Virus record (IMG/VR): IMGVR_UViG_2778261501_000004 | Coordinates: 1 to 21,272 of that record | Strand: one strand, 5' to 3' | From: a virus | Lineage: Duplodnaviria; Heunggongvirae; Uroviricota; Caudoviricetes | DNA: 21,272 nt | Shown here: positions 3,510 to 11,053 of the stretch, in pieces | Position numbering within the stretch: position 1 is the stretch's first letter | How the letters are laid out: each line of letters opens with the position of its first letter | Program-made: the position numbers and the translations under genes | Notes under the pieces: model-generated | The model's database searches: none | Told to the model about the DNA's origin: nothing | The model's input: the letters and a program-made list of their open reading frames with translations, nothing else

Positions 3510-5784
3510 AGCCTCCGGGCGTTTTGTCCCTCCGTCAGCATTTGCCGCAGGCACCGGTAAGGCGTTTACCGGTGCTTATGCATGGAACGCGCCACGCGAG
3601 GCTGTCGGGCGCGAAAGACCCCTTACACGTGACGAGATGCGTCAGGTGCAAGGTGTTTTATCCACGATTAACCGCCTGCCTTACTTTTTGCGCTCGCTGT
3701 TTACTTCACGCTATGACTACATCCGGCGCAATAAAAGCCCGGTGCACGGGTTTTATTTCCTCACATCCACTTTTCAGCGTCGTTTATGGCCGCGCATTGA
3801 GCGTGTGAATCAGCGCCATGAAATGAACACCGACGCGTCGTTGCTGTTTCTGGCAGAGCGCGACCAGTATGCGCGCCTGCCGGGGATGAATGACAAGGAG
3901 CTGAAAAAGTTTGCTGCCCGTATCTCATCGCAGCTTTTCATGATGTATGAGGAACTCTGCGATGCCTGGGTTGATGCACATGGCGAAAAAGAATCGCTGT
4001 TTACGGATGAGGCGCAGGCTCACCTCTATGGTCATGTTGCTGGCGCTGCGCGTGCTTTCAATATTTCCCCGCTTTACTGGAAAAAATACCGTAAAGGGCA
4101 GATGACCACGAGGCAGGCATATTCTGCCATTGCCCGCCTGTTTAACGATGAGTGGTGGACTCATCAGCTTAAAGGCCAGCGTATGCGCTGGCATGAGGCG
4201 TTACTGATTGCTGTCGGGGAGGTCAATAAAGACCGTTCTCCTTATGCCAGTAAACATGCCATTCGTGATGTGCGTGCGCGCCGCCAGGCAAATCTGGAAT
4301 TTCTTAAATCGTGTGACCTTGAAAACAAGGAAACCGGCGAGCGCATCGACCTTATCAGTAAGGTGATGGGCAGTATTTCTAATCCTGAAATTCGCCGGAT
4401 GGAGCTGATGAACACCATTGCCGGTATTGAGCGTTACGCCGCCGCAGAGGGTGATGTGGGGATGTTTATCACGCTGACCGCGCCGTCAAAGTATCACCCG
4501 ACACGTCAGGTCAGAAAAGGCGAAAGTAAAACCGTTCAGCTTAATCACGGCTGGAACGATGAGGCATTTAATCCAAAGGATGCGCAGCGTTATCTCTGCC
4601 GCATCTGGAGCCTGATGCGCACGGCATTCAAGGATAATGATTTACAGGTCTACGGTTTGCGTGTCGTCGAGCCACACCACGACGGAACGCCGCACTGGCA
4701 TATGATGCTTTTTTGTAATCCACGCCAGCGTAACCAGATTATCGAAATCATGCGTCGCTACGCGCTCAAAGAGGATGGAGACGAAAGAGGAGCTGCGCGA
4801 AACCGTTTTCAGGCAAAACACCTTAACCGGGGCGGTGCTGCGGGATATATCGCGAAATACATTTCAAAAAACATCGACGGCTATGCACTGGATGGTCAGC
4901 TCGATAACGACACCGGCAGGCCGCTGAAAGACACTGCAGCGGCTGTTACCGCATGGGCGTCAACGTGGCGCATCCCGCAATTTAAAACGGTTGGCCTGCC
5001 GACAATGGGGGCTTACCGTGAACTACGCAAATTGCCGCGCGGCGTCAGCATTGCTGATGAGTTTGACGAGCGCGTCGAGGCTGCACGCGCCGCCGCAGAC
5101 AGTGGTGATTTTGCGTTGTATATCAGCGCGCAGGGTGGGGCAAATGTCCCGCGCGATTGTCAGACTGTCAGGGTTGCCCGTAGCCCGTCGGATGACGTTA
5201 ACGAGTACGAGGAAGAAGTCGAGAGAGTGGTCGGCATTTACGCGCCGCATCTCGGCGCGCGTCATATTCATATCACCAGAACGACGGACTGGCGCATTGT
5301 TCCGAAAGTGCCGGTCGTTGAGCCTTTGACTTTAAAAAGCGGCATCGCCGCGCCTCGGAGTCCTGTCAATAACTGTGGAAAGCTTACCGGCGGTGATACT
5401 TCGTTACCGGCTCCCACACCTTCTGAGCACGTCGCAGCAGTGCTTAATCTGGTTGATGACGGTGTTATCGAATGGAATGACCCGGAGGTCGTGAGGGCGC
5501 TCAGGAGCGCATTAAAATACGGCCTGAGAACCTCAAACCGTCAGCAAAGAAACGGAAGCCCGTTAAAACCGCATGAAATTGCACCATCGGCCAGACTGAC
5601 CCGGTCGGAAAGAATGCAAATTACCCGTATCCGCGTTGACCTTGCTCATAACGGTATCAGGCCGCAGCGATGGGAGCTTGAGGCGCTGGCGCGTGGCGCG
5701 ACCGTAAATTATGACGGGAAAAAATTCACTTATCCGGTCGCTGATGAGTGGCCGGGATTCTCAACAGTAATGGAGTGGAAATGA
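3499..5784 (+). CDS. A: Replication initiation protein A, a rolling-circle nicking endonuclease. The ATG at 3499 gives 761 aa, the same as P2 gpA.
   Basis: Large basic protein at the gpA position. The HxH-type motif 'HWHMMLF' and the Tyr-rich 'AAGYIAKYISKNIDGY' segment fit the rolling-circle Rep superfamily. The track's ORF starts earlier at a TTG at 3457. Confidence 0.85.
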   Translation: MAVKASGRFVPPSAFAAGTGKAFTGAYAWNAPREAVGRERPLTRDEMRQVQGVLSTINRLPYFLRSLFTSRYDYIRRNKSPVHGFYFLTSTFQRRLWPRIERVNQRHEMNTDASLLFLAERDQYARLPGMNDKELKKFAARISSQLFMMYEELCDAWVDAHGEKESLFTDEAQAHLYGHVAGAARAFNISPLYWKKYRKGQMTTRQAYSAIARLFNDEWWTHQLKGQRMRWHEALLIAVGEVNKDRSPYASKHAIRDVRARRQANLEFLKSCDLENKETGERIDLISKVMGSISNPEIRRMELMNTIAGIERYAAAEGDVGMFITLTAPSKYHPTRQVRKGESKTVQLNHGWNDEAFNPKDAQRYLCRIWSLMRTAFKDNDLQVYGLRVVEPHHDGTPHWHMMLFCNPRQRNQIIEIMRRYALKEDGDERGAARNRFQAKHLNRGGAAGYIAKYISKNIDGYALDGQLDNDTGRPLKDTAAAVTAWASTWRIPQFKTVGLPTMGAYRELRKLPRGVSIADEFDERVEAARAAADSGDFALYISAQGGANVPRDCQTVRVARSPSDDVNEYEEEVERVVGIYAPHLGARHIHITRTTDWRIVPKVPVVEPLTLKSGIAAPRSPVNNCGKLTGGDTSLPAPTPSEHVAAVLNLVDDGVIEWNDPEVVRALRSALKYGLRTSNRQQRNGSPLKPHEIAPSARLTRSERMQITRIRVDLAHNGIRPQRWELEALARGATVNYDGKKFTYPVADEWPGFSTVMEWK
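5350..5369 (+). other. Putative origin of replication (nick site) inside gene A: GCGCCTCGGAGTCCTGTCAA.
   Basis: P2 ori lies inside the 3' part of A. This 20-mer matches my recollection of the P2 nick-site region. Position and memory only. Confidence 0.35.
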
Positions 5785-6227
5785 TGGCAAAAATTCACGA
5801 GGTAAAGCTGCACGCCAAATATTTTGACCTTGTGCTGGAAGGAAAGAAACGCGCAGAGTTTCGGAAAAATGACCGTAATTATGAGCGCGGGGACACGTTG
5901 ATTTTGCATGAATGGGTACAGGGTGTGTATACGGGGCGAAAGGTTGAAGCCCGGATAACAGATGTTACTGACCTGTCAGACTGGCTGGAAGATTATGTCT
6001 TGCTAAGTATTGAGCGGCTTAATACAGGCGCATATGAGATTGTGAACTGGAAAGAACTTAGTGAGCGTGGTCTGGTATTCAGAATTAATCATGAAATTAT
6101 GCATCAGCTCGGCCTTGCTGTTATGTATGAGCCGGAGACGGGGCTGTCTGGCGGGGCAGTGGTTACTGCGGATGGGATATGGAACTATTCAGATGAACAG
6201 GTGGAGCGTACAAAGCAAAACGGGTGA
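5784..6227 (+). CDS. ASCH/DUF3850 (PUA-like) domain protein.
   Basis: N-terminal segment KIHEVKLHAKYFDLVLEGKKRAEFRKNDRNYERGDTLILHEW is typical of ASCH/DUF3850. ATG overlaps the A stop (ATGATGG). GGAGT Shine-Dalgarno. Confidence 0.65.
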   Translation: MAKIHEVKLHAKYFDLVLEGKKRAEFRKNDRNYERGDTLILHEWVQGVYTGRKVEARITDVTDLSDWLEDYVLLSIERLNTGAYEIVNWKELSERGLVFRINHEIMHQLGLAVMYEPETGLSGGAVVTADGIWNYSDEQVERTKQNG

Positions 6228-6235
6228 CTTGGATA

Positions 6236-6442
6236 ATGCACAGAATACCAGGCGAGATACCGCACCATAAAACTAAAAATATCAAGCTGATGGCTATTGT
6301 TCAGCGTTTACAGCGGATTATGGTCAACGAAAATCTGACGCCCGATGAGCTGGTCGGGTGTGCCGAAATAGTCCGGGATAATTACGGGCGGTTTAACCAT
6401 ATCGGTCAATCAAGAGTTACGCCACCACCACGCAGACGATAG
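6236..6442 (+). CDS. Small hypothetical protein of about 68 aa. The start is uncertain; the alternative ATG at 6290 gives 50 aa.
   Basis: ORF directly after the ASCH gene. No strong RBS. Arg/Pro-rich tail (TPPPRRR). Confidence 0.3.
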   Translation: MHRIPGEIPHHKTKNIKLMAIVQRLQRIMVNENLTPDELVGCAEIVRDNYGRFNHIGQSRVTPPPRRR

Positions 6443-6639
6443 AGAACGCCGCCAGTCGTGAAACTTGTTTTCAGGGCTGGCGGGGTTGAACAACGAGCGA
6501 AGCGAGGCGTTAGCTAGGCTTTCTATATTGTTTACAATTAAACCTATCCAGAATTAATTGGAATTCAATTTGATCTTTTTCTCGCTACATATGGCCACAA
6601 GTACCAAAACGTGAGAACATCAAAGCTAGGCGAAATCTA

Positions 6640-6695
6640 GCTTTTCCATAGGAGTTGTTTCGTTATAATACGCGGTCGGTTTTTAGGAGGGGTCA
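6640..6695 (+). promoter_or_regulatory. Candidate sigma70 promoter and RBS for the methyltransferase: -10 TATAAT at 6664–6669 and AGGAGG at 6685–6690.
   Basis: Perfect TATAAT 26 nt upstream of a perfect AGGAGG. The -35 is weak (TTTCCA/TTCCAT region). AT-rich foreign DNA. Confidence 0.4.
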
Positions 6696-7634
6696 ATGCC
6701 AACTGTAGTGTCGCTTTTTTCCGGGTGTGGTGGTTCTGATGCAGGAGTCTTGAAGGCTGGGTTTGATGTTCTAATGGCGAATGACATTTTACCTTACGCT
6801 CGTGATGTGTATTTGGCTAACCATCCAGAAACTGATTATGTTTTGGGTGATGTCTCCACTATTGAATCGTTTCCATCTGCTGAACTGCTGGTTGGTTGCT
6901 ATCCCTGTCAAGGTTTTAGCCAAGGTGGAGTTCGAAAAGCTGATAGAAAAATTAATACGCTATACTTAGAGTTTGCAAGAGCTTTAAGAATAGTTAAGCC
7001 AAAAGCGTTCATTGTTGAAAACGTTTCTGGCATGTTGCGAAGTAACTTTGAACATTTGTTGAAAGATCAGTTCAAGGTTTTCGAAGAGGCTGGTTACAGA
7101 GTTAAATCTAAAATTCTAAATGCTTCTCATTTTGGTGTTGCTCAGGATCGTAAGCGCATTTTTATTGTTGGCATACATGAGAGATTTGGAGTTGATTTTT
7201 CGTTTCCAGTCGCGACTCATGGCGAAGGATTGAAAAGAGTGACTACTATCCGTGATGCGATAGGTTCGTTACCGGAATGGCCTGTTGGAGAGTTTTATGA
7301 TGCCGATTTCCATTGGTATTATTTATCAAGAAATCGCCGTCAGGACTGGGATCAAATCTCAAAAACCATAGTTGCTAATCCAAGGCATATGCCTTTACAT
7401 CCAATTAGTCCAACTCTTATAAAGTTAGGTCCAGATAAATGGCAATTTACATCAAATGAACGTGCACGGCGTTTTAGTTTTCGTGAGGCTGCTTATCTTC
7501 AAGGATTTAGTAATTTAGTTTTTCCTGAAACAGAGCGAGCATCCATGAATATGAAATATACAGTTGTCGGAAACGCCGTACCGCCCCCTTTATTCGAAGC
7601 GGTAGCGCGTTCATTACCTGATATTTGGGATTAA
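6696..7634 (+). CDS. DNA (cytosine-5)-methyltransferase, a compact 312-aa enzyme.
   Basis: Motif I FSGCGG, motif IV PCQGFS (catalytic Cys), motif VI ENV, motif VIII QDRKRIF, motif X GNAV. A variable target-recognition domain lies between VIII and IX. Confidence 0.9.
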   Translation: MPTVVSLFSGCGGSDAGVLKAGFDVLMANDILPYARDVYLANHPETDYVLGDVSTIESFPSAELLVGCYPCQGFSQGGVRKADRKINTLYLEFARALRIVKPKAFIVENVSGMLRSNFEHLLKDQFKVFEEAGYRVKSKILNASHFGVAQDRKRIFIVGIHERFGVDFSFPVATHGEGLKRVTTIRDAIGSLPEWPVGEFYDADFHWYYLSRNRRQDWDQISKTIVANPRHMPLHPISPTLIKLGPDKWQFTSNERARRFSFREAAYLQGFSNLVFPETERASMNMKYTVVGNAVPPPLFEAVARSLPDIWD

Positions 7635-8560
7635 CTCAACACATAATCCATAGCCACTAAGTCATCAACAAACGTTAGATTGTCTTGGTGGTTTATCTGT
7701 GGATATTTTTTAGTCAGATTTACTAGTCTAAGTCTATCAACAAATATTGCAGCACCAAAATCACTCCTGTGAGCCCAGTCGCGGTTATGCCATCTTAAAT
7801 CTTGTGGAAGAAAATAATATGTTGACCATGGATGTAAGACAGGAAGCAAATTCCACAATTTAGCCGGTGTGGCCTCAAGTTGTTTTGCTACCCATTCAGT
7901 TTTTGAACATCCACATTGAGCAAGAGCAAGAGGTATAGACTCACGATTATCTCCCATATCATGCCAAGCGAGTATATCAATTCCTCCATCTCCCCTGTCA
8001 TTTGGTTTGAAATCTTCAATTGAAAAATTAGCTTTACATCTGAAATCTTGTGCTATTTTAGTTAACTTATCAAAGAGTAAGCCAGTGTAGTGACCTGAAT
8101 TACCTGCGCTAGCCCAACAGTGTTTAACTGTTGCTCCTTCAGGCATGAGGGCTTGAAATATGGGATAGCTTATTTTCTCAAATGCACTTGTAAATATGTC
8201 ACGGTGACTATTTTCTATATATTTTATATTTGCACAGGCTAAGAGTGCTATGTATAGTTTTTCATTTTGATTGTAATCAGCAATATTATGCTTTCTTAAG
8301 AATAATGTGTCTCTGTCATCAGAAAAATAAAAGGGGTAATCATCACCGAAAAGGCTAATTCTTGTGTCAATGAATGTCGCTGCAAAATTCCATTTATCGT
8401 CAGAATACCCGCGTGACTTTGGATTTGCTTGAGACCTAAAGAGGCTTGCTAGATCTCCTCTACTAAAGCATTTGTCTGTATTTACTGTAGCCCATAACTC
8501 TAAATAGTCGCCCCATAAATATGGCTCGTTATCGGGTAATGAGTCCATGTGAAAAATCAT
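7631..8560 (-). CDS. Putative restriction or effector nuclease with an Mrr-cat-like PD-(D/E)xK core and an N-terminal domain of unknown function (309 aa).
   Basis: The C-terminal half has GDGGIDILAW…(15 aa)…LALAQCGCSK, resembling the Mrr_cat motifs (D-G-G-I-D… and Q-x-K). Its ATG overlaps the upstream ParB-like stop (TAATG). Its stop overlaps the MTase stop convergently (TTAA). Confidence 0.6.
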   Translation of the reverse strand: MIFHMDSLPDNEPYLWGDYLELWATVNTDKCFSRGDLASLFRSQANPKSRGYSDDKWNFAATFIDTRISLFGDDYPFYFSDDRDTLFLRKHNIADYNQNEKLYIALLACANIKYIENSHRDIFTSAFEKISYPIFQALMPEGATVKHCWASAGNSGHYTGLLFDKLTKIAQDFRCKANFSIEDFKPNDRGDGGIDILAWHDMGDNRESIPLALAQCGCSKTEWVAKQLEATPAKLWNLLPVLHPWSTYYFLPQDLRWHNRDWAHRSDFGAAIFVDRLRLVNLTKKYPQINHQDNLTFVDDLVAMDYVLS

Positions 8561-9639
8561 TATTCATCTTCCTCACGGATGCTTTCAATTTGTTTTTTAA
8601 TTTTACGCGCTATAGATAATATTTCACTCGAACGATATTCGTGATTTTCTGTGAAAGAGTGCGTGTTGAGAAGCATATCCCAAACAACTCTTAGTCGAGA
8701 TTCTGCTTGGTCTAGAGCTTGATCCAAAGCCTCTTCATGACCATTTGTATATAAATAGGCTTCTTCAATGTTTTTAGACTTTATGAGGTTATCTATTGCT
8801 GCTTCATTGGCAACTATTGTTGAAAGATTTTTGATCTTGCGACTTTCACCAATGATAGTATCACCCTGTTGATCTCTAACAAAGAACCAAGCAAAAAGCT
8901 TCTCAAGGTTTTCCTCTTTCAGGTTTTTAGCAGATAAATCTTTTCTATCATCTAAGCCTAACCAGTCTGTAATGTTAGTATATCCAAGAGCTGTTGTTAT
9001 GTAGGAAAAATCGACATCATTCTCACTCATATGCAAATTATAGAAGTTTTTATCAGCAGCGGTTTCATATAATTTGAGTGAAGTTAATAAAAGGCCGACG
9101 TAATAAGATTTACTGCCAATTTCTTTAGCTAATGACTTTAAAAGAGATTCTTTGTCTGCACCTTTGTAGAAAGTTTCACTAAGCTCCTTAAGATACTTAG
9201 CTTTAGAAAGTGCATCCCATTCTTTCACACCAGTAATGTGTCTATATCCGATATAACGTAACACATCTTCACGTCTTGTGTAGACGAGACAAGGTAATTT
9301 AGTCGGTTTATAAGTAGCATCGTCCTGAATTAGTTGAATGCTTTTTTCTTTTCTTTTAGGTGGTAAAAGTTCGCTATTGAGCAACTTTACGGCAGCAAGG
9401 CGACGGTTACCCTCAACTACAACATATTTTTTCCCGGAACTAACCACTAAAAGAGGTTCTCCGGGAAAGTAATCTTGTTCCCCTATGGACAGCATCAAAT
9501 CTTGTACACTTTCGTCATCAAGCATTTCTTCAATGACGGCATTTTCAGATCCAGCCCTATCGTTTAACCGATAGAAACGTGGGTTTTCAGGATCAAACTC
9601 TAGATCTTCCGTGTTTATGTATTTGATTTCGTTGCTCAT
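8560..9639 (-). CDS. ParB/Srx N-terminal-domain protein with a 250-aa helical C-terminal extension (359 aa).
   Basis: IKYINTEDLEFDPENPR…LMLSIGEQDYFPGEPLLVV…KYVVVEGNRRLAAVKLL matches the ParB-N fold signature (NPR… then GxRRxxA). First gene of a two-gene leftward operon. Confidence 0.7.
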   Translation of the reverse strand: MSNEIKYINTEDLEFDPENPRFYRLNDRAGSENAVIEEMLDDESVQDLMLSIGEQDYFPGEPLLVVSSGKKYVVVEGNRRLAAVKLLNSELLPPKRKEKSIQLIQDDATYKPTKLPCLVYTRREDVLRYIGYRHITGVKEWDALSKAKYLKELSETFYKGADKESLLKSLAKEIGSKSYYVGLLLTSLKLYETAADKNFYNLHMSENDVDFSYITTALGYTNITDWLGLDDRKDLSAKNLKEENLEKLFAWFFVRDQQGDTIIGESRKIKNLSTIVANEAAIDNLIKSKNIEEAYLYTNGHEEALDQALDQAESRLRVVWDMLLNTHSFTENHEYRSSEILSIARKIKKQIESIREEDE

Positions 9640-9830
9640 AATTGTATTCTGCGCAGATATAAGGATGACTTGCTACAGCATAACCTTATGTTTAGCATCT
9701 GTCATTATGATGGCTGCCTTATGCATGATTTTGCATCCATTTTTTATTTTATTTTTTTGGGGGCGCATTAGGCCCGATATGGTTTTTGGAGACGATGCGT
9801 TTGCATCAAAACAGCCCCATGAAGCGGGCG

Positions 9831-9849
9831 GGCGAGGCGGGGAAAGCAC
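9831..9849. other. cos site: GGCGAGGCGGGGAAAGCAC, the 19-nt cohesive-end sequence of P2.
   Basis: Matches the P2 cos 19-mer as I recall it. Lies between the cargo and the Q terminator as in P2 (…old-cos-Q). G-rich terminase-binding flanks at 9850–9990. Confidence 0.7.
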
Positions 9850-9991
9850 TGCGCGCTGGCAGTAGTGCTGATTTTATTTTTTCAGCGTCTGAGCGCGTCG
9901 TGATGGCGTTTAGATTGTGTGCCGGGGCGTTGGTTTGTCTGCGGGCTATTTTGCGCGGAGGTGAGCGTGTGAGGGCGTGATGGCGGGGTGT

Positions 9992-10013
9992 AAAAAAGCC
10001 GCCCGCAGGCGGC
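9992..10013 (-). terminator. Rho-independent terminator downstream of Q on the minus strand.
   Basis: Stem GCCGCC-CGCA-GGCGGC (9998–10013) followed on the − strand by TTTTTT (9992–9997 as AAAAAA). Confidence 0.6.
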
Positions 10014-10018
10014 GATGT

Positions 10019-11053
10019 TCAGCCGTTGTCAGTGTCCAGTGAGTAGTTTTTAAAGCGGATGACCTCCTGACCGAGCCAGCCGTTTATCTCGCGGATCCTG
10101 TCCTGTAACGGGATAAGCTCATTGCGGACAAAGACCTTTGCCACTTTCTCAATATCACCCAGCGACCCGACGTTCTCCGGCTTGCCGCCCATCAACTGAA
10201 AGGGGATGCGGTGCGCGTCCAGCAGGTCAGCGGCGCTGGCTTTTTTGATATTAAAAAAATCGTCCTTCGTTGCCACTTCACTGAGCGGGATAATTTTTAT
10301 GCCGTCGGCTTTCCCCTGTGGGGCATAGAGAAACAGATTTTTAAAGTTATTGCGGCCTTTCGACTTAACCATGTTTTCGCGAAGCATTTCGATATCGTTG
10401 CGATCCTGCACGGCATCGGTGACGTACATGATGTATCCGGCATGTGCGCCATTTTCGTAATACTTGCGGCGGAACAGCGTGGCCGACTCATTCAGCCAGG
10501 CAGAATTAAGGGCGCTCAGATATTCCGGCAGGCCGTACAACTCCTGATTGATATCCGGCTCCAGCAGGTGAAACACGGAGCCGGGCGTGAAGGCTGTCGG
10601 CTCGTTGAAGGACGGCACCCACCAGTAAACATCCTCCTCCACGCCACGGCGGGTATATTTTGCCGGTGAGGTTTCCAGTCTGATGACCTTACCGGTGGTG
10701 CTGTAACGCTTTTCCAGAAACGCATTACCGAACACCAGAAAATCCAGCACAAAGCGGCTGAAATCCTGCTGGGAAAGCCACGGATGCGGGATAAATGTCG
10801 AGGCCAGAATATTACGTTTGACGTAAATCGGTGAGCTGTGATGCACGGCAGCACGCAGGCTTTTTGCCAGACCGGTAAAGCTGACCGGTGGCTCATACCA
10901 TCTGCCGTTACTGATGCACTCGACGTAATCCAGAATGTCACGGCGGTCGAGTACCGGCACCGGCTCACCAAAGGTGAATGCCTCCATTTTCGGGGCGCTG
11001 GCGGTCATTGTTTTCACCGCTGGCTGCGGTGTTTTCCCTTTTTTCTTGCTCAT
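10019..11053 (-). CDS. Q: Portal protein Q.
   Basis: 344 aa, the same as P2 gpQ. Start ATG overlaps the P stop (TGATG). Conserved position next to cos. Confidence 0.9.
   Translation of the reverse strand: MSKKKGKTPQPAVKTMTASAPKMEAFTFGEPVPVLDRRDILDYVECISNGRWYEPPVSFTGLAKSLRAAVHHSSPIYVKRNILASTFIPHPWLSQQDFSRFVLDFLVFGNAFLEKRYSTTGKVIRLETSPAKYTRRGVEEDVYWWVPSFNEPTAFTPGSVFHLLEPDINQELYGLPEYLSALNSAWLNESATLFRRKYYENGAHAGYIMYVTDAVQDRNDIEMLRENMVKSKGRNNFKNLFLYAPQGKADGIKIIPLSEVATKDDFFNIKKASAADLLDAHRIPFQLMGGKPENVGSLGDIEKVAKVFVRNELIPLQDRIREINGWLGQEVIRFKNYSLDTDNG

Follow-up and report, generated by a model that had tools for sequence, protein, structure and literature searches.

In the stretch of viral DNA considered here (IMG/VR record IMGVR_UViG_2778261501_000004, positions 1 to 21,272, hereafter the window), a gene at positions 8560-9639 of the minus strand encodes a ParB-like protein of 359 amino acids (aa). 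We consider it fairly probable that a restriction-modification (RM)-like anti-phage cassette of three genes, carried by a P2-like prophage, has this protein as its ParB-type subunit. The other two members of the cassette are a gene for a 309-aa partner (7631-8560, minus strand), with an N-terminal winged helix and a C-terminal PD-(D/E)xK nuclease domain, and a gene for a C5 DNA cytosine methyltransferase of 312 aa (6696-7634, plus strand). The ParB-like protein probably acts as a nucleoside triphosphate (NTP)-binding and DNA-binding subunit, for which we infer a switch or clamp mechanism.

The three genes were followed through 114 related loci, comprising 34 genome loci (one genome per species) and 80 IMG/VR loci collected with a broader profile (95-30% identity). 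The pair could be evaluated in 30 of the 34 genome loci, and all 30 have the partner after the ParB-like gene together with a C5 methyltransferase; among the IMG/VR loci the partner lies directly downstream in 78 of 80, and a C5 methyltransferase is present in all 77 that could be evaluated. Since the operon is strictly linked to a C5 methyltransferase, the unit is RM-like. Indeed, linked methyltransferase and endonuclease genes, the generic criterion of RM, are co-inherited in every evaluable locus, and the analysis supports the ParB-like protein as the obligatory companion of the nuclease within this unit. The initial annotation, made from the window alone, had described a 'nuclease operon' of two genes; the coupling of the two is borne out by their TAATG overlap, but the pair does not stand alone, its strict link to the convergent C5 methyltransferase having been missed.

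The order of the genes varies in some loci and their membership is constant (L042, L106, L110, L114, L098 and L107). A HaeIII-like methyltransferase gene is directly adjacent at 26 of the 30 genome loci, convergent in 25 of them and upstream and co-directional in L042; at the remaining four a 1048-aa N6-methylase/Eco57I-like gene is adjacent and the C5 methylase gene is 3 kb away. Occasional IMG/VR loci show the order methylase-ParB-partner, or all three genes co-directional. Linked methyltransferases occur in Gamma- and Betaproteobacteria, in one Rhizobium metagenome-assembled genome (MAG), in Candidatus Elarobacter and in viral contigs. The module is also found in chromosomal islands that are not prophages (Methylomonas, Dechloromonas), and in a Pseudomonas P2-like phage it sits at another position of the genome. 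Copies without the pair are solely decayed remnants, in phage L-413C and in L031.

Several of these loci have features of their own. In the four with the N6_Mtase/Eco57I-like gene (L017, L022, L023 and L039, from Variovorax, Hydrogenophaga, Pelomonas and the Rhizobium MAG), this 1048-aa gene is convergent with the nuclease gene, and the C5 methylase found 3 kb further on is a different one, of about 40% identity; the region concerned lies at about 6985-11050. Yersinia phage L-413C (L008) has a ParB-like open reading frame (ORF) of 330 aa at 3531-4523, which matches no more than part of the C-terminal half of the query and has neither partner nor methylase; L031 retains a truncated ParB-like gene and a methylase fragment. 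In Methylomonas sp. DH-1 (L003, 10669-10845) a 58-aa Vsr fragment and a transposase lie beside the C5 methylase of the module. Vsr (very-short-patch repair) proteins are the usual companions of 5-methylcytosine methylases; no vsr gene is present in the window.

The locus of Escherichia coli PSS-08-2 (L001) is 99.2% identical to the window in DNA, and each of its three cassette proteins is 100% identical; the RefSeq name of the ParB-like protein in this strain is 'ParB/Srx family N-terminal domain-containing protein'. Phage Wphi (L007) has the same module in its genes mth, orf96 and orf98, where the ParB-like protein shows 65% identity and the partner 48%. The annotated starts of Wphi gp98 (401 aa) and gp96 (369 aa), within 4355-6590, apparently lie too far 5': in gp98 the homology sets in at M45 and in gp96 at M29, and with those starts the 80-nt overlap of the two genes vanishes. 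Mean identity to the window decreases from the methylase (72%) to the N-terminal part of the ParB-like protein (63%), its C-terminal part (47%) and the partner (43%). The divergence of the ParB-like C-terminal part follows that of the partner most closely (r=0.95), a value which, as all such correlations, is inflated by shared ancestry.

The methyltransferase matches Pfam DNA_methylase (PF00145, E=2.9e-60) and the M.HaeIII structure 1dct (E=3.1e-46) over residues 4-307, the target-recognition region included. Its best PADLOC matches are DruM and MTase_II, and PD-Lambda-5_B is absent from the best 25. The gene converges on that of the nuclease, and the stop codons of the two overlap in a TTAA at 7631-7634.

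The 309-aa partner had been taken for a nuclease in the initial annotation, and its predicted structure (predicted local distance difference test score, pLDDT, 93.4) has a restriction-endonuclease fold, the closest structural match being the catalytic domain of MspJI. The motif GDGGID (residues 190-195; 7976-7993, minus strand) contains the putative catalytic Asp D195; G190, D191, G193 and D195 are invariant in two alignments (A1 and A3), and the region aligns weakly to the catalytic region of MspJI. The motif QCGCS (residues 215-219) and K226 form a variant (D/E/Q)xK half-site (7883-7918, minus strand), in which Q215, C216 and K226 are invariant in the same alignments; overall, E128, GDGGxD, Q215 and K226 are invariant or nearly so. 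Searched whole and as two halves, the protein gave no Pfam, NCBIfam or PADLOC match. A profile search with its distant homologues recovered 420 proteins; every name given by the source among the matches listed is 'hypothetical protein', and no name or REBASE-type annotation was recovered among the homologues listed. As judged from these sequence comparisons, the partner belongs to a nuclease family that has neither a name nor a model in Pfam, NCBIfam or PADLOC.

The ORF of the ParB-like protein had been proposed earlier with no strand; it is real, with 359 codons and an ATG start on the minus strand, and the peptides FDPENPR, LMLSIGEQ and VVVEGNRRLAAVKLL previously read from it are all present in its translation. 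The protein has 2602 homologues at E<=1e-3 (best E=2.8e-221), most of those listed being 355-375 aa long, and 2705 clusters match its N-terminal 160 residues in a library of 50%-identity cluster representatives; because of this large conserved set the ORF is not a chance one. The claimed translational coupling is also confirmed: TAATG at 8558-8562 (minus strand) joins the TAA of the ParB-like gene (8562-8560) to the ATG of the 309-aa gene (8560-8558), with one base in common.

A ParB/Srx fold, postulated from the letters of the N-terminal region, is upheld by the predicted structure (pLDDT 88.8), whose best Foldseek matches are nucleotide-bound ParB, KorB and Noc; the structure model settles this fold for the N-terminal part. 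Structural relatives are SbnI, KorB, SerK, PadC and sulfiredoxin, and also pNOB8 ParB, Spo0J and Atu1540; the best matches are nucleotide-binding switches and kinases, with no nucleases among them. At the profile level, Pfam ParB_N gives 17.4 bits (E=0.0045, gathering score 26.3) and TIGR00180 gives 26.7 (cut-off 58.45). Among 60 relatives, 38 have weak ParB_N matches and 13 weak GmrSD_N matches, none above threshold; because all these matches are weak and sub-threshold, the family is, on sequence grounds, a branch of the ParB/Srx superfamily that has no existing profile model. When the family profile was compared by hhalign with Bacillus subtilis ParB, whose reference sequence was checked against PDB entry 6sdk, the probability was 89% and both Box I and Box II were aligned.

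The equivalent of ParB Box I is FDPENPRF (residues 15-22; 9574-9597, minus strand), which is invariant in alignment A2 and is placed by hhalign on NPYQPR of B. subtilis ParB; its D16 and R21 are invariant in the broader alignment A4 too. Box II, or P-motif, corresponds to EGNRRL (residues 76-81; 9397-9414, minus strand), placed on GERRFR of ParB. This is the 'GxRR' arginine-finger box of the initial annotation, and it holds up: G77, N78, R79 and R80 are unchanged in 60 sequences, the most distant of which are about 30% identical, the full set of invariant residues in these sequences being D16, R21, I52, G77, N78, R79, R80, H134 and W141. A family-specific motif, GYRHITG (residues 131-137; 9229-9249, minus strand), follows; H134 and the nearby W141 are invariant and R133, T136 and G137 are at least 90% conserved. 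In an alignment made by eye, with no tool result behind it, RHxTG (133-137) seems to occupy the position of ParB Box III (ENLQR), so that residues canonical for hydrolysis are not evident.

Beyond the N-terminal part, a central helical domain (residues ~123-200; 9040-9273, minus strand), within which lies LAKEIGSKSYYVGLLLTSLKLY (9067-9132, minus strand), superposes on the DNA-binding helix-turn-helix (HTH) domain of ParB, KorB and Noc. The long helical C-terminal extension noted at the outset is present as a family-specific domain (residues ~200-359; 8563-9039, minus strand), which terminates in a long helical hairpin (H301-325 and H331-358). The C-terminal half gave no Pfam, NCBIfam or PADLOC profile match; the C-terminal domain may be a partner-binding or dimerisation module.

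Within the P2-like prophage, the cassette has replication gene A, DUF3850/orf91 and a small ORF on its left, and cos followed by portal, terminase, scaffold and capsid genes on its right, the annotations of the flanking genes having been transferred from the 99.2%-identical PSS-08-2 locus. A 19-nt sequence, GGCGAGGCGGGGAAAGCAC, which we take to be the P2 cohesive-end (cos) sequence, is found as an exact copy at 9831-9849, 190 bp upstream of the ParB-like start codon. An exact 19-mer match is not expected by chance, and the cassette thus abuts cos, the right end of the P2 map. The GC content of the cassette is 36-41%, versus 52-60% in the phage backbone. The site between gene A/orf91 and cos/portal is a published defence hotspot of P2, in which tin, old and numerous defence systems are located (PMC9519451); the earlier reading of the locus recognised neither this hotspot nor PD-lambda-5, the closest validated relative. 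The supplementary tables of Rousset et al. contain a recurrent P2 hotspot locus described as 'DNA_methylase + hypothetical + ParBc'. The hotspot also holds a 'DUF262 + DNA_methylase + HEPN' locus (supplementary table, PMC9122126), a second combination of ParB superfamily, methylase and effector, parallel to the cassette and PD-lambda-5.

Other features of the setting may be added. The gene at the border of the hotspot (5748-6227, P2 orf91) encodes a DUF3850/ASCH and DUF7415 protein, and ParB-DUF3850 fusions are typical of phages according to a 2025 survey (PMC12704722). A candidate sigma-70 promoter, ATGACA-17-TATGCT, lies 5' of the ParB-like gene (9677-9705, minus strand) with 9/12 consensus matches, the number of such sites equalling chance expectation; promoter and terminator scans altogether gave results at chance level. 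The phage backbone has somewhat fewer GGCC sites than its base composition predicts (60 observed versus ~90 expected), a mild under-representation, and in the cassette GGCC occurs 4 times against 4.2 expected, with no under-representation; these counts say little on the specificity of the methyltransferase. For GATC the count is 14 in the backbone, where the site is rare, and 11 in the cassette, where it is frequent.

Among known defence systems, the link to PD-lambda-5 had been overlooked earlier, when DUF262 and DndB proteins were named as kin. PADLOC PD-Lambda-5_A matches residues 1-153 of the ParB-like protein with E=1e-24, covering positions 1-161 of profiles of 428-508 positions. PD-lambda-5 was described by Vassallo et al. 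(2022) as 'ParB/HEPN, methyltransferase', with ParB-N at residues 6-89 of the A protein (PMC9519451). The A protein is ~450-500 aa long with weak HEPN-like matches near its C-terminus, and the B protein is a D12-class N6-adenine methyltransferase; the system, described as a compacted RM and abortive infection (Abi) system, protects against nine of ten phages and needs an mrr-deleted host (PMC9519451). Both systems are prophage-borne, share a homologous N-terminal module of ~155 residues and combine a ParB-like protein, an effector and a DNA methyltransferase. In the cassette, however, the ParB-like protein has an unrelated C-terminal half, a PD-(D/E)xK DNase encoded by a gene of its own takes the place of the fused HEPN domain as effector, the methylase is C5-cytosine instead of N6-adenine, and three genes are found instead of two. 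Membership in PD-lambda-5 was therefore rejected, since only residues 1-153 match the A protein and the C5 methylase is not PD-Lambda-5_B. The same N-terminal query does recover true PD-lambda-5 systems, with full-length A and B matches, in Marinobacter phage AS1 and Vibrio phage ValB1MD-2. In the latter (L045, 3132-5571) two ORFs, of 252 and 265 aa, correspond to the N- and C-terminal halves of a single PD-Lambda-5_A profile and are followed by a Dam-type methylase, so that ParB-like module and effector can be separate polypeptides in PD-lambda-5 too. The PADLOC candidate PDC-M38A is matched with E=1.8e-25, residues 42-348 covering positions 58-356 of a 715-position profile.

The DUF262/GmrSD family (GmrSD, BrxU, SspE, PD-T4-2, Menshen NsnA) and DndB/DpdB are comparable as ParB-superfamily NTP-binding sensor or switch modules, coupled to nucleases in modification-linked defence (PMC12065111). 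A kinship by sequence is not sustained: no match to GmrSD_N (PF03235, E<=1) or DndB was found, and the box reads GNRR, as in ParB (GERR). A system of the DUF262/GmrSD type (PF03235 with DGQHR, and DUF1524/HNH) was likewise rejected, PF03235 giving no match and the fold of the partner being PD-(D/E)xK and not HNH. With the ParB/Spo0J, Noc and KorB clamps the protein shares the ParB/Srx N-terminal fold, Box I, a GxRR Box II and, after these, helices that can be superposed on the DNA-binding domain of ParB. It differs from them in its sub-cut-off profile scores, the GNRR form of Box II, an unrelated C-terminal domain, its nuclease and methylase partners, and the lack of a recognisable Box III (ENLQR), a ParA-binding motif, parA and parS. 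In the NTP-dependent multi-subunit restriction enzymes, such as McrBC and the CglI/NgoAVII R and N proteins that go with a C5 methylase, the NTPase is an AAA+ or a superfamily 2 (SF2) motor and not a ParB/Srx protein, and no sequence homology is seen. HaeIII-group Type II RM systems and SdaI-type enzymes resemble the cassette in the HaeIII-like C5 methyltransferase, the adjacent winged-helix PD-(D/E)xK gene and the convergent order; the cassette differs from them by an obligatorily linked ParB-like gene before the nuclease gene and by an unnamed nuclease family.

The way in which such a unit could work can be outlined, with defence activity, complex formation, the nucleotide bound and its hydrolysis, the reader of methylation and the methylated sequence all being predictions of the analysis. 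The cassette would be a low-GC moron inserted in defence hotspot 1, between replication gene A/orf91 and cos/portal. The methyltransferase would mark host and prophage DNA, probably at GGCC or a related sequence, and the nuclease would be translated from the same mRNA as the ParB-like protein. The latter, probably a dimer, would bind DNA through its central ParB-type helical domain and an NTP in the Box I/Box II pocket, and its C-terminal helical domain would hold the nuclease. On unmethylated incoming DNA, a nucleotide-dependent state of the ParB-like subunit would license cleavage by the nuclease. The initial annotation had likewise suggested an NTP-gated sensor or clamp licensing its partner, which is plausible. 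A more specific version, in which the subunit is a nucleotide-gated clamp that uses its ParB-type DNA-binding domain to load at unmethylated sites, closes on NTP, slides and delivers or activates the bound nuclease at a distance, is in our opinion unlikely, if conceivable. According to a recent survey, neither sequence nor AlphaFold3 predicts nucleotide specificity in the ParB fold (PMC12704722).

Several points weigh against the assignment of the ParB-like protein as a subunit of the RM-like cassette. In phage vB_EcoM-12474III and many O145 E. coli strains the methylase is 85% identical to that of the window, and the pair is found at 30% (ParB-like) and 26% (partner); comparing this phage (L002, 5237-8273) with the window at 6696-9639, the C-terminal half of the ParB-like protein is 24% and the nuclease 26% identical. 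If the two restriction proteins had to recognise one common site in the conventional manner, restriction parts so different beside such a methylase would be surprising; two very different pairs served by much the same methylase suggest either fast diversification of the restriction half or a reading of the target that does not reside in these parts. The sequence-level signal of ParB is weak, the Pfam and NCBIfam scores being under their cut-offs. Box III, to which CTP (cytidine triphosphate) hydrolysis is assigned, was not alignable, as the hhalign alignment ends at residue 115, before it; with this box apparently replaced, the protein might merely bind nucleotide, or another ligand. The DNA-binding domain is assigned solely from the predicted structure, BLASTP of the putative HTH region against the DNA-binding domain of B. 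subtilis ParB giving no alignment. The partner, a winged helix joined to a nuclease domain as in the stand-alone enzyme SdaI, might in principle need no ParB-like protein to act. In the table of tested systems of Rousset et al. ParB is unmentioned, and no functional study of the cassette, of PDC-M38, of Wphi orf96/orf98 or of a ParB-dependent restriction enzyme was found in the literature.

The ParB-like protein might instead be a KorB- or DndB-like transcriptional regulator, a large analogue of the 'C proteins' of RM systems, which times or limits expression of the nuclease operon and is no part of the enzyme. We regard this as quite unlikely: the gene is translationally coupled to that of the nuclease through TAATG, it co-occurs with the nuclease in all of the more than 100 evaluable loci even where the gene order has changed, its C-terminal half diverges together with the nuclease, and the surroundings of the promoter regions show no conspicuous inverted or direct repeats of operator type.

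A role of the ParB-like protein as the effector itself, nicking DNA or degrading nucleotides as reported for Osa and some ParB/Srx proteins, with the 309-aa protein as accessory or second effector, appears very unlikely. In conflict systems, ParB/Srx members with nuclease and NTPase activity have been described (Maindola et al. 2014, as cited in PMC10853773 and PMC12839542), and PD-lambda-5 fuses the same N-terminal module to a putative HEPN effector. However, the obvious catalytic subunit is the partner, in which the PD-(D/E)xK signature is complete and invariant and the fold is that of a restriction enzyme, and the ParB-like protein finds its best structural matches among nucleotide-binding switches and kinases, not among nucleases.

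It is just as improbable that the methyltransferase is an independent orphan or anti-restriction enzyme, and that the ParB-like/nuclease pair is blind to methylation and acts in an Abi-like or Type IV-like manner. The resemblance of the nuclease to the catalytic domain of MspJI, a modification-dependent enzyme, would fit this arrangement, as would the location of the methyltransferase and nuclease genes on opposite strands, the occurrence of a methylase gene in P2-like phages at loci that otherwise share little DNA, and the different methyltransferase next to the pair in four genome loci. Nonetheless, wherever the locus could be evaluated, in Gamma- and Betaproteobacteria as in the other lineages, the pair comes with a cytosine methyltransferase; its stop codon often overlaps that of the nuclease gene, or the genes are fused into one transcription unit; and the copies without methylase are decayed and have no nuclease, the pattern expected if the nuclease is toxic in the absence of the methylase.

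A partition ParB serving an extrachromosomal state, to which the ParB N-terminal domain and the ParB-like central helical domain might point, has a negligible probability and is effectively refuted by context: no parA is found among the annotated features of L001 from gene A to the lysis genes, a regular-expression search gave no LG[KR]G[LFI] ParA-binding motif, TIGR00180 scores far under its cut-off, the one match to the chromosomal parS consensus has 3 mismatches and falls within the terminase gene (chance expectation 0.73), no repeat families beyond chance-level pairs occur in 6200-10100, in keeping with the original observation that parS-like repeats are lacking nearby, and P2-like phages are integrated in the host chromosome; the genes conserved beside the ParB-like gene encode a nuclease and a methylase.

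ParB-fold nucleotide switches extend well beyond chromosome segregation (PMC12704722), and for PD-lambda-5 no published mechanism was found in the literature. Members of the ParB-like family number in the thousands and come from Proteobacteria, from at least one further lineage and from the prophages of these. If the clamp version were true, this would be the first restriction enzyme to rely on a switch of the ParB/CTPase type where others use an AAA+, SF2 or ABC motor, and the N-terminal module would serve as an exchangeable sensor, driving a DNase in this cassette and a HEPN RNase in PD-lambda-5. As an RM-like unit, the cassette is compact and widespread, and its ParB-like subunit, which keeps the nucleotide pocket and the ParB-type DNA-binding domain, is tied to a classical nuclease and to a well-understood methylase; thus, the role of a ParB switch in self/non-self discrimination is testable here by standard restriction assays. 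With such a role, an occupant that recurs in the P2 defence hotspot without annotation, and likewise a family of nucleases that has no name, would each gain a function.

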